Shown here: positions 1 to 3,000 of the stretch, piece by piece
Position numbering within the stretch: the first letter of the stretch is position 1
Layout of the letters: every line of letters begins with the position of its first letter
Virus record (IMG/VR): IMGVR_UViG_2630968639_000005
DNA: 6,244 nucleotides
Source: a virus
Taxonomy: Duplodnaviria; Heunggongvirae; Uroviricota; Caudoviricetes
Reading direction: 5' to 3' (one strand)
Program-made: the position numbers

Positions 1-3000
1 GATAGCGGGGAGTGGTGGAGCGATTTAGCCCCGGAATGGCTCCTCTGTTCTTCCAGTTCCTGACGGACGAGGACGTGACTGGCCGCCTGTATGCGCGAGG
101 TTACCGACTGCGGCCTGGGTTTTTTAAGTGACGTAAAATCGTGTTGAGGCCAACGCCCATAATGCGTGCAGTTGCCCGGCATCCAACGCCATTCATGGCC
201 ATATCAATGATTTTCTGGTGCGTACCGGGTTGAGAAGCGGTGTAAGTGAACTGCAGTTGCCATGTTTTACGGCAGTGAGAGCAGAGATAGCGCTGATGTC
301 CGGCAGTGCTTTTGCCGTTACGCACCACCCCGTCAGTAGCTGAACAGGAGGGACAGCTGATAGAAACAGAAGCCACTGGAGCACCTCAAAAACACCATCA
401 TACACTAAATCAGTAAGTTGGCAGCATCACCATCAAAGTTGTTAACCAACATACACTCTATCTGCGGCAAGAGTAGAACAGGTTATAAGAACACCATTCA
501 CAGTAGAGTTTCATCCTTTGCTGGTAAGGTGGTCAACGTCATTCATTTCCCAAACAAATATTCTGCTCTAATTGGCGTTCTGTTCTGTATACACTATTGA
601 CAAGTTCACAAACCTGAGAGGCAGCATCGAAAAGGTGGCATGCCTTATCCAGGCTGACGCATCCCACCAATAAAAAAGGCACCAGTATCGCTACCAGTGC
701 CCATTTCGCCGCCACTCGCGGTATTCTGTGTGTCCAGTGTTTTCGGCGCATGTCACCACCAACGCACAGCCCAAATCAGAACAGCGACCGCCACAAGGCG
801 AATTGCAAAGGCCGCAGCCCTTGTCAAATCAAGGCTCGCGGGAGTTTCCACTTCAATACCTTTCATAATGGACAACCTCAAAAAGAATCTTTTATACTTT
901 CCCACGAGGATTTTCTCCGTACTCACTACTCACAATTTCCTCTTTGACGTGAAAACTAAAAACCCCGGACTGTTCCAGCAGCCGGGGTTTTGTTTTTTTA
1001 TTTACTGCCCTGGGTGCGGCATCTGGCTATTTCATTCCTGGCTTTAGTGTCACCGCGACAGATACAACGAACCGTGTCACCCGCCAGCGTAGTGATGTAG
1101 GCCTCATCCGTTTTTTCCACCGAAATGCATGGCACATTTCCATCCCGGCAATACTCCACCTGGGCAGCAAGGTGAGTGTTGCGCGGGTAAAATTCCAGGC
1201 GATACATATTCCCCAGAACATGCACTTCTTCAACCTGGCGCCCATCTTCCGTTACCGTGATTTTTTTCAGCGCGTACATACGTACCTCCGTTCTTTCGTT
1301 TTTTGAGCAATAAAAAAGCCGCTCATGGCGGCCCTGTATGTTTTGCAAGCTATCGCTTCAATTGAAAATGTGGGCCGTCTTTAAGCGTCCGCCAGTCCCC
1401 GCCCCATTCGATGGCTGTTCCCAGCTCTGCGGCAGCCTGCTTAAATGCCTGCGCGATTTTCTCGTACAGAGGCCAGTCCCATGACACCTGGCTGCCAACC
1501 CAGGCAACAACATCCACCGCATCACCGGTCAGGTGGCGGCTGTTCATGGTCTGGCTTTTCCCTTCCGCGACCAGCTGTTTCTGGCGTTCTTTCGTGCGCA
1601 GCCCTTCCGTAATACCGAAATCAACCTCCGTCAGCTCCAGCGCACGGCGAACGACAGCAACCAGCTGTGGTTTAACGCCCTCCAGATTCTTTTCGCTGCG
1701 ACGACTGAATCTGAATTTACCCGACATATTCACCTCAATAATGGAAAGATTTTTGTGACGTTCCCGCGCGCGCGTATCACCAGCACGCAGAACAGCAGAT
1801 TAAAAAACACTTCCAGCCAGCCCGTTGCTAACGGGCGACCACACAGATAGCTGAGGGGCGCAAAGGCATACAGCAGCATCAGCAACCAGGCCAGCCATGA
1901 CATCAGCGGTTTATGTCTGGAATCACAGCGACGATAAAAAAAGAGCGTCAGCACGATAACCGTGCATAACGCCACATTCAGCAATCCGGGAAGGTTACTT
2001 AACATTGCCGCCTCCTCCACCCCGCAGGCGGGAGAACAAGCCGGACACCAGTGATGCGATATCCTGCTGGTGGATGAACGACAGAATCTTCACCGACACC
2101 ACGGATACCAGCACCGCACACAGCGCATCTGCCGATGTGCCGTCATAACCTGTTTTTGCCGCTATCCAGGCAGACAGCACACGCGCTCCCAGCACGCCGA
2201 CAATGAACGACACCAGAAAATGCGCCGCCACCCGCCAGGCTGAAAGCGCCTGCGGCATCGTTGCCACAAATAACGCCCCGGCGAACGCACCAAACACAAT
2301 CCCGAAATCCGTTCCGGTAAACAGCCCGAATACCGTCGCCCCGCCGAGCGCCGCTGCCGTACCGGAACCGGATAAGGGTTCAGACATAAATACCTCTCAA
2401 AATCAGCGTGATGGGAGTTTATACCAAGTTATAAAATTATGTGATTAAGTATCTTTTTGTGGTCCCATACAATAATCAGATGAACTACATGTGCTTAAAG
2501 AAATTAGTTCGTTAGTAGAGAAGGCCTTTTTAAACTCGGAATCACTCCACACATTCTCCTTATAATAGACCCTTATACTTTCACCAGTAGCATAATAATA
2601 CTTAGCCATTTCCATCATGGCATCGAAACCTTGTTTATGAGATCCAAAGACATCCACCTTACACATATTGTGAATGGGAAGAGTCACATTATCACGCTTT
2701 ATACCAATACAAAAAAACTGACTTTCCTTACCCCCGGATGTGTAAACTCCATATGATAAATTATTTATCTGAACATTACTAAAGTACTTATCATAATCAC
2801 TCATCACTGCATGACTTGTACCAGATAACAATGAAAGAGCAATTAAGGAATATTTTATTTTCCGTTTCATAAAACCTCTTATATACGCTAACAAGTTAAT
2901 CAACAAATCAAATAATAAACACATCATTTCAATAGCATCATTTTATTATTTCTTTTAACACACCTCTTGCATCATAAAATTCGGGTTCATAATAAGTGGC

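Follow-up and report, generated by a model that had tools for sequence, protein, structure and literature searches.

Downstream of the endolysin gene of a lambdoid prophage there is a short open reading frame, ORF93, enclosed by two hairpins, and the locus raises the question whether it is a gene at all and, if so, when it is expressed and what kind of function it serves. The window, i.e. the whole 6,244-nucleotide stretch of DNA that was analysed, is a piece of this prophage, and all its genes are carried by the minus strand (Table 1). An earlier note, made from the sequence alone, had described a 93-codon ORF with a GGAGGT-N4-ATG start, located downstream of the endolysin gene between a weak terminator and a strong bidirectional one. 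These elements were all confirmed: the ORF lies on the minus strand next to an M15 endolysin gene, the hairpin preceding it is weak (approximately -9.4 kcal/mol for the hairpin alone), and the one following it reaches -21.8 kcal/mol on the minus strand (z -4.3) and -24.3 kcal/mol on the plus strand (z -5.4).

Table 1. Features of the window, listed from the Q-type gene to the ORFs downstream of ORF93
Feature	Position	Strand	Remarks
DUF1133 / Q-type antiterminator gene	4051-4593	minus	Defines the late operon
tR'-like terminator	3973-3944		After the Q-type gene
Pertussis-like AB5 toxin gene pair	2938-3663 and 2445-2927	minus	AT-rich
Two overlapping holin genes (Phage_holin_3_7 and Phage_holin_8)	1995-2387 and 1730-2020	minus	
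M15 endolysin gene	1350-1733	minus	Upstream neighbour of ORF93; Peptidase_M15_4 E 5.6e-12; PHROG 465 (endolysin) E 2.8e-75
Upstream terminator-like hairpin	1309-1335	minus	GGCCGC-CATGA-GCGGC (AGGGCCGCCATGAGCGGCTTT+TTTATT at 1335-1315) plus TTTTTTATT
A-rich leader	1280-1308	minus	GCTCAAAAAACGAAAGAACGGAGGTACGT; near-invariant across E. coli-clade copies
Shine-Dalgarno sequence	1289-1284	minus	GGAGGT; 4 nt before the ATG; kept in all E. coli-clade copies
ORF93 CDS	998-1279	minus	93 aa, MYALKKITVTEDGRQ...RCRTQGSK; ATG at 1279-1277, TAA at 1000-998; member of PHROG 33497
Bidirectional terminator	951-999	both	Directly after the ORF93 stop codon
Tiny C-terminal-TM ORF and small lipoprotein ORF	753-926 and 539-751	minus	Downstream neighbours of ORF93

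The toxin A subunit matched PDB entry 4Z9C across all 241 residues (E 2.8e-161), and sister prophages carry stx2e or stx2k a few genes upstream of ORF93. GC content was 51.4% in ORF93, 52-60% in the endolysin and holin genes, 47-48% in the downstream ORFs and 33-38% in the toxin genes; the latter are the true morons in this prophage. The slot of the two ORFs at 539-926 is held by a small TM ORF and Rz/Rz1 in a relative (L048). An IS1 copy truncates the window prophage at about position 430, and the prophage is probably defective. ORF93 is still intact in it.

The ATG was taken as the start of ORF93 because every homolog begins with MYALK, and a 116-aa version starting from the TTG at 1348, which appeared in a mechanical ORF list, was rejected on the same ground. 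Among 26 distinct 93-codon alleles the median dN/dS was 0.127 (309 pairs), and differences at codon positions 1, 2 and 3 numbered 2678, 1596 and 7127, respectively, an excess at the third position. Judged by this substitution pattern, ORF93 is a genuine gene under strong purifying selection in its intact copies. The opposite reading, that it is a chance ORF caught between two terminators and encoding no functional protein, could draw on the absence of any known domain and on the pseudogenes found among the copies, but it is contradicted by the low dN/dS and strong codon-position bias, by the length of the ORF, which is kept over six genera, and by the confidence of the structure prediction (AlphaFold2 pLDDT 88.7). 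Purifying selection and family conservation together rule this reading out, leaving it practically no probability.

The orphan status attributed to the product proved wrong. ORF93 matched the PHROG 33497 HMM with E 1.1e-51 (residues 1-93 on profile positions 1-95 of 95), as did all 31 of the 31 aligned family members, and ~55 homolog clusters (90% identity) were found in prophages of E. coli, Salmonella, Edwardsiella, Proteus, Providencia and Xenorhabdus. The family extends down to ~45-50% identity over six genera without frame breaks. ORF93 is present in ~79 of 5,426 complete E. coli genomes, and corresponds to RefSeq WP_032084003, a "hypothetical protein" of Stx2e prophages, for which a literature search found no paper; tblastn against 50,697 phage records yielded a sole match, phiSTEC1575-Stx2k, where the gene is likewise annotated as hypothetical.

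The statement that the protein belongs to no recognised family was borne out in that no characterised family was matched, and PHROG 33497 itself carries no functional annotation. The window protein had no Pfam match at E <= 0.1, and only scattered single-member matches appeared when all 31 members were searched at E <= 10. NCBIfam gave no match, and the PADLOC-DB defence HMMs gave 0 families at E <= 0.1. Run against 1.84 billion representatives, a profile HMM retrieved 21 proteins only, which all belong to this one small family and provide no link to a known one, and the profile search of PDB sequences returned noise (polyubiquitin at E 0.003 with no passing stretch, and the Rubisco small subunit). 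The predicted structure had no significant fold match, and no structural-protein family or fold was matched. A known structural or lysis-accessory homolog, named in the earlier note as a possible outcome, was found in none of the Pfam, NCBIfam, PHROG, PDB-sequence and fold comparisons.

The conserved core of the family comprises residues 1-77 and includes the motifs MYALK, LGxMYRLE and DEAYITTLxGDTVR. The AlphaFold2 model, obtained with the family alignment, consists of seven beta-strands and a C-terminal helix; this basic helix is clade-specific, being missing from the Proteus clade. The product is a small cytoplasmic protein with a predicted all-beta fold. The description of the protein as Cys-rich applies to the E. 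coli clade, but the pattern is not conserved in the family and is an accident of that lineage: the family alignment has no invariant Cys column, the Cys of ICRG is replaced by Ser in many Proteus members, and the remaining Cys residues are restricted to the E. coli clade. A zinc-finger or disulfide motif was rejected on this basis. The protein had also been called soluble and not a spanin, and this agrees with our results. No TM segment was detected (the maximum 19-residue Kyte-Doolittle mean was 0.35), and neither was a lipobox or a signal peptide. A spanin (Rz, Rz1 or u-spanin) was rejected for lack of an N-terminal TM segment, a lipobox and a match to PF03245, a holin or antiholin for lack of a TM helix and of any holin match in Pfam or PHROG, and Bor for lack of a TM segment, a lipobox and homology.

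ORF93 was always found in the late region among 109 loci (duplicates included), at three or more different positions. In ~58 loci (E. coli, Edwardsiella and an Aeromonadaceae MAG) it follows an endolysin gene of the M15 or GH108 type, and the next gene is then the tiny TM/lipoprotein pair, Rz/Rz1, DUF2514, an inverted bor or a small terminase gene. Another 31 loci (Proteus, Providencia, Xenorhabdus and others) have it between Q and the holin gene; in 16 Proteus loci it is flanked by a MuF-like head gene and a scaffold gene, and in one locus by an M15_3 endolysin gene and DUF2280. Homologs follow a lysis gene in the post-endolysin loci, but not in the 31 loci with a copy preceding a holin gene or the 16 with a copy in the head module, and the proposed tie to the slot of Rz/bor-type genes had to be given up. 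The nearest labelled neighbours were co-directional with ORF93 in 197 cases and opposite in 7. The Q, holin, endolysin, spanin, terminase and capsid families beside it are unrelated between cases.

Comparison of occupied and empty sites revealed how the gene is gained and lost. The holin-holin-M15 cassette of L015 (strain 103605) is identical to that of the window, but a terminator stands directly after the endolysin stop codon and ORF93 is missing; the indel corresponds to about positions 1001-1349 of the window. An element of the 951-999 type is found directly 3′ of the endolysin gene in relatives without ORF93, and the upstream hairpin, missing from the empty site, comes with ORF93. In Proteus prophages with 88-100% identical MuF genes, the MuF-scaffold gap is 112-113 nt long in more than 40 relatives, with one terminator and no ORF93, and 411-412 nt in 16 relatives, with ORF93 and two terminators. 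Here, in the head module, the resident hairpin serves as the upstream one, and the crossovers map within GGCCTTTTTT. The same site accommodates other cargo (a Phage_gp49_66 protein, a 184-195-aa TM protein or a 59-aa membrane ORF), which is followed by a hairpin and TTTTTTATTACC in each case whose flanks were read. In L060 the hairpin of window positions 702-677 is joined to the ORF93 leader via the 12-nt CCTTTTTTATTG. These empty-versus-occupied comparisons showed that the recombination joints of the cassette fall in the hairpin or the T-run.

Absence or frame disruption in relatives, which the earlier note would have taken as refuting its reading, was indeed found: beside the absence in L015, ORF93 is frameshifted in one lineage (L013, L076-L080) and has an internal stop codon in L014. 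It follows from the absent and dead copies that ORF93 is dispensable cargo. Because the intact copies are under strong purifying selection, the losses demonstrate dispensability rather than lack of function. The suggestion that the protein might be cargo was thereby supported: ORF93 is a dispensable accessory gene with a terminator on each side.

The terminator in front of the gene is a regular feature. Of 48 distinct upstream sequences, 44 (92%) had an intrinsic-terminator-like hairpin with a T-run no more than 60 nt from the ATG, and in the four misses the hairpin was cut by the 60-nt limit or had a poorer T-run. By the same test, an upstream terminator was present for 7% of the other labelled genes of these loci (23 of 310); some of these positives may represent the downstream terminator of ORF93 itself, because the small TM ORF after ORF93 scored 5 of 9. 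The hairpin stem ended 24-43 nt before the ATG in the 62 flank contexts scanned, and the hairpin was also found in the remote members L194 and L195 (~45-50% identity). In the alignment of 26 distinct leaders 86% of the cells were paired, compared to 29-71% in slid controls. Double compensatory changes occurred in 4 of 9 pairs, and the observed covariation score was reached by 0 of 500 shuffles. The most conserved part of the element is the T-run. In the window, the 74-nt leader folded no better than shuffled sequences (z -0.57). A terminator 0-30 nt beyond the stop codon is likewise present in most homologs. An Rfam match to rnk_pseudo overlapping the terminator was below threshold (28 bits vs a gathering score of 55) and was taken as chance. 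The surplus of terminators in front of the gene may have arisen neutrally, through insertion at operon junctions, and not by selection for gating.

The strong Shine-Dalgarno sequence and the A-rich leader suggest efficient translation of ORF93. In the E. coli clade hardly any variation is seen in the leader between the T-run and the ATG or over the first ~60 nt of the CDS, while elsewhere in the gene synonymous divergence reaches 0.6-0.9. Possible causes of this near-invariance are a constraint on translation initiation, a regulatory site and homogenisation by recombination; the cargo-cassette model presented below does not account for it.

No sigma-70-like consensus match was found on the gene strand before ORF93 by a simple consensus scan, a method that could overlook a promoter that is weak or non-canonical, as well as leaky read-through in lysogens. 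The distance from the upstream stop codon to the ATG is only 70 nt, most of which is taken up by the terminator and the leader, and there is no room for a promoter in three independent contexts. ORF93 lies downstream of the Q gene and the tR'-like terminator, co-directional with the operon, and essential late genes are located further downstream. Lambdoid phages have a single late promoter, pR', whose transcripts are made terminator-resistant by Q, and stx2 expression depends on pR' and on Q-mediated read-through of tR'. Transcription must also read through the ORF93 cassette, because Rz/Rz1 (L048) and, in STEC409, the terminase, portal and capsid genes on the same strand lie downstream of it. 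In the absence of its own promoter, and starting just after a terminator, ORF93 is thus predicted to be silent in the lysogen.

The reading that we favour, on balance and with limited confidence, is that ORF93 is a dispensable, promoter-less cargo cassette with Q-gated late expression and a host-directed or general late function. The cassette consists of an intrinsic terminator, a ~30-nt leader with a strong Shine-Dalgarno sequence, ORF93 and a second terminator, placed inside the Q-dependent late operon of temperate Enterobacterales phages and always co-directional with it. In the lysogen the upstream terminator would keep ORF93 off. Late in infection the Q-modified RNA polymerase would read through both terminators, as it does for stx2, and ORF93 would be co-transcribed with the lysis and morphogenesis genes. 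The cassette is gained, lost and relocated by recombination at joints in the terminator hairpin or T-run. Because the Q, holin, endolysin, spanin, terminase and capsid modules that ORF93 accompanies are unrelated, the most economical guess is that its product acts on a host target or in a general late process and not on a particular phage partner.

If ORF93 were a classical moron, it would be expressed from the repressed prophage, via a weak or unrecognised promoter or leaky read-through, and would give the lysogen a phenotype, for instance in superinfection exclusion, defence or fitness. This is rather unlikely. The presence/absence polymorphism and the terminator boundaries fit it, as do the persistence of an intact ORF93 in an IS-truncated, probably defective prophage, and the fact that the slots of ORF93 are shared with toxin genes, a Tad2-like gene and membrane-protein cargo. 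The promoter consensus and the space for it are, however, missing, the latter in three independent contexts; the canonical terminator immediately upstream in 92% of the contexts, the unremarkable GC content and the lack of a PADLOC match point in the same direction, and the strict co-orientation with late genes (197:7) would not be required of an autonomous unit, as illustrated by the inverted Bor that adjoins ORF93 on the other strand in L013. That the protein regulates or chaperones the endolysin or holin in the cytoplasm, and so tunes the timing of lysis, appears quite improbable. Such a role would agree with the 89 of 109 loci in which ORF93 immediately follows an endolysin gene or immediately precedes a holin gene, and with the L048 copy, inserted between the endolysin gene and Rz/Rz1. 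It is difficult to reconcile with the diversity of the endolysins (M15, GH108, lysozyme, M15_3) and holins (families 8, 3_7, 3_1, 3_3, 2_1) that accompany the gene, which are unrelated, with the 16 loci in the head module, far from lysis genes, and with identical lysis cassettes that work without ORF93; moreover, the protein has no TM segment or signal peptide.

We regard an accessory role in the virion or its assembly, such as that of a head-associated or packaging factor, as highly improbable. Late expression would suit such a protein, and ORF93 adjoins the terminase gene in Edwardsiella and L011 and is flanked by the MuF-like and scaffold genes in Proteus, but the terminases (Nu1/GpA, Terminase_4, Sf6-type, Terminase_2) and capsid systems are unrelated, close relatives of the same head module lack ORF93, and no structural-protein family or fold was matched. 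Two further readings are linked, and taken jointly they are unlikely. One is that ORF93 encodes a late, host-directed effector with a new fold, e.g. a counter-defence protein, which would be synthesised alongside the capsid, portal and terminase proteins by which abortive-infection systems are triggered; being harmful to the host, the effector would be strictly silenced in the lysogen by the upstream terminator. The other is that the hairpin/T-run motifs of temperate enterobacterial phages are portable recombination joints, which would shuffle promoter-less cargo around the Q-antiterminated late operon.

The cargo cassette can be compared with several known systems. It resembles morons, as defined for lambdoid phages (HK97 gene 15, lambda bor and lom; PMC3594210), in being extra DNA between late genes, present in some and absent from other closely related phages, and in consisting of a single small accessory gene bounded by a factor-independent terminator. 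The moron layout suggested by the earlier note is thus justified by the difference between L015 and the window and by the downstream terminator, but not with respect to the promoter, which was not found, or GC content, which is not deviant. Unlike morons, ORF93 has a terminator on its upstream side as well, and since it has no promoter of its own, autonomous expression from a repressed prophage is not expected. With stx2AB of Stx phages it shares a co-directional position in the late operon downstream of terminators and, probably, expression restricted to antiterminated transcripts; it differs in encoding an unrelated, cytoplasmic protein of 93 aa without a signal peptide, and in occupying several positions in the operon, not only that after tR'. 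Rz/Rz1 and Bor are the usual occupants of the post-endolysin position, and the likeness of ORF93 to them is in position only: it has no TM domain, lipobox or homology, and in L048 a true Rz/Rz1 pair is found further downstream.

A further parallel is offered by the PeSL cassettes of T4-type phages, in which small ORFan genes are flanked by conserved stem-loop terminators, and cargo is inserted, deleted or exchanged at hot spots through recombination between the stem-loops (PMC2839356, PMC4122927). Conserved stem-loops flanking exchangeable cargo are also characteristic of ORF93, with joints in the hairpin/T-run exemplified by L060 and by the alternative cargo at the Proteus MuF-scaffold site. 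PeSLs, however, include a strong early sigma-70 promoter and their hosts are virulent T4-like phages (PMC2839356, PMC4122927), whereas the ORF93 cassette is promoter-less and belongs to the Q-dependent late operon of temperate phages. If the hairpin/T-run motifs acted as portable joints, they would represent the temperate counterpart of the PeSLs.

In kind, ORF93 is ordinary: an uncharacterised accessory gene of the lambdoid late operon with an unusually regular, terminator-bracketed layout. For this reason the immediate impact of the finding is modest. It does mean that a hypothetical protein encoded beside the stx2e, stx2k and EcPltAB toxin genes in STEC prophages is the product of a real, selected and mobile gene, which is probably made simultaneously with the toxins and the lysis proteins. 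If its expression is gated by antitermination, ORF93 joins stx2 as cargo that exploits Q read-through and has no promoter of its own. The terminator-ORF-terminator layout, found at three or more sites in six genera, offers a simple signature by which further late-operon cargo may be found.

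The late operon of the prophage carries the genes of a pertussis-like AB5 toxin of the EcPltAB type. All 241 residues of the A subunit could be aligned to PDB 4Z9C (E 2.8e-161), and the B subunit matched the AB5_pltB_like subfamily. The GC content of these genes is 33-38%. In STEC409 and phiSTEC1575-Stx2k, a sister prophage and phage with an identical lysis cassette and ORF93 (the 93-aa cargo ORF), the same slot is occupied by stx2e/stx2k. The shared position of the AB5 and stx2e/stx2k genes indicates that different toxins swap at one late-operon slot.

Features located in the window and in comparison locus L012
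Feature	Location	Strand	Evidence or description
EcPltAB-type AB5 toxin genes	window 2445-3663	(-)	PDB and subfamily matches
Two overlapping tiny ORFs after ORF93	window 539-926	(-)	PHROG 4493, PHROG 7528
ORF93 leader and first ~60 nt of CDS	window 1280-1308 and 1220-1279	(-)	near-invariance
Strong terminator-like hairpin, then TTTTTT	window 677-702	(-)	-17.9 kcal/mol, z -5.4
IS1 copy (InsA ORF 101-376)	window 1-430		IS1 transposase family match
ORF starting MNYSHDNWSAILAHIGKPEEL...	window 6083-6244		54-aa fragment
74-aa ORF	window 5539-5763	(-)	
68-aa Cys-rich ORF (MKYYVHTLTDNQNDHEVHTETCFRLPD...CYWCCRDCHTS), unannotated	L012 ~3931-4137	(-)	own SD

A gene pair annotated as 'enterotoxin A family' and 'enterotoxin' was seen in the prophage of E. 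coli 442/2 (L014). Directly 3′ of it lies an ORF93 copy that is pseudogenised by an internal stop. The same prophage also carries eplA, a subtilase-family AB5 toxin gene; these L014 features are located at 3535-5127 and 6904-7291.

Of the two tiny ORFs, the PHROG 4493 member bears a C-terminal TM segment, and the PHROG 7528 member encodes a small lipoprotein with the lipobox LLVGC; neither family has an assigned function. In relative L048 the equivalent slot contains a similar tiny TM ORF and, after it, a classical Rz in which a proline-rich Rz1 is embedded. Because this slot holds Rz/Rz1 in L048 and the tiny ORF pair in the window, the window prophage belongs to a lineage without a recognisable spanin, in which the TM and lipoprotein ORFs may act as a spanin substitute.

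Among the E. coli-clade alleles of ORF93, whose synonymous divergence reaches 0.6-0.9 over the rest of the gene, the leader and the opening ~60 nt of the coding sequence are almost invariant. This pattern suggests RNA-level or regulatory constraint, or else recombinational homogenisation. The terminator-like hairpin falls within the part of the small lipoprotein ORF that encodes its signal peptide. L060 has the same hairpin upstream of its ORF93 copy, joined to the ORF93 leader through the 12-nt CCTTTTTTATTG, a fusion that looks like a recombination joint. An Rfam match to the Pseudomonas rnk leader (window 905-999, (+) strand), which overlaps the bidirectional terminator behind ORF93, was sub-threshold (28 bits, E 0.12; gathering score 55) and most likely arose by chance.

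The IS1 copy truncates the prophage just past the small lipoprotein ORF. At the other end, the ORF starting at 6083 resembles the beginning of an IS186-type transposase; a family search with the 54-aa fragment gave no match. Adjoining this putative IS186 end, a 300-nt AT-rich (35% GC) non-coding stretch follows the 74-aa ORF (window 5539-6060), for which Pfam and PADLOC returned no match.

The MuF-scaffold intergenic site in the head module of Proteus prophages (L113-L192; e.g. L118 ~3610-3740) is a cargo hot spot. When empty it measures 112-113 nt and contains one terminator. In other cases it is occupied by ORF93, by a 129-aa Phage_gp49_66 protein, by a protein of 184-195 aa with an N-terminal TM segment, or by a 59-aa membrane ORF; wherever the flanks were read, a hairpin and TTTTTTATTACC were found 3′ of each cargo. 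In L012 the Cys-rich ORF, without a match in Pfam, sits between a GH108 endolysin and the ORF93 homolog. Xenorhabdus prophages (L010 3773-4558; L031) carry a Tad2-like gene (PF11195, anti-Thoeris family) between the antiterminator gene Q and the ORF93 homolog; a counter-defence gene of a known type thus occupies this late-operon slot.
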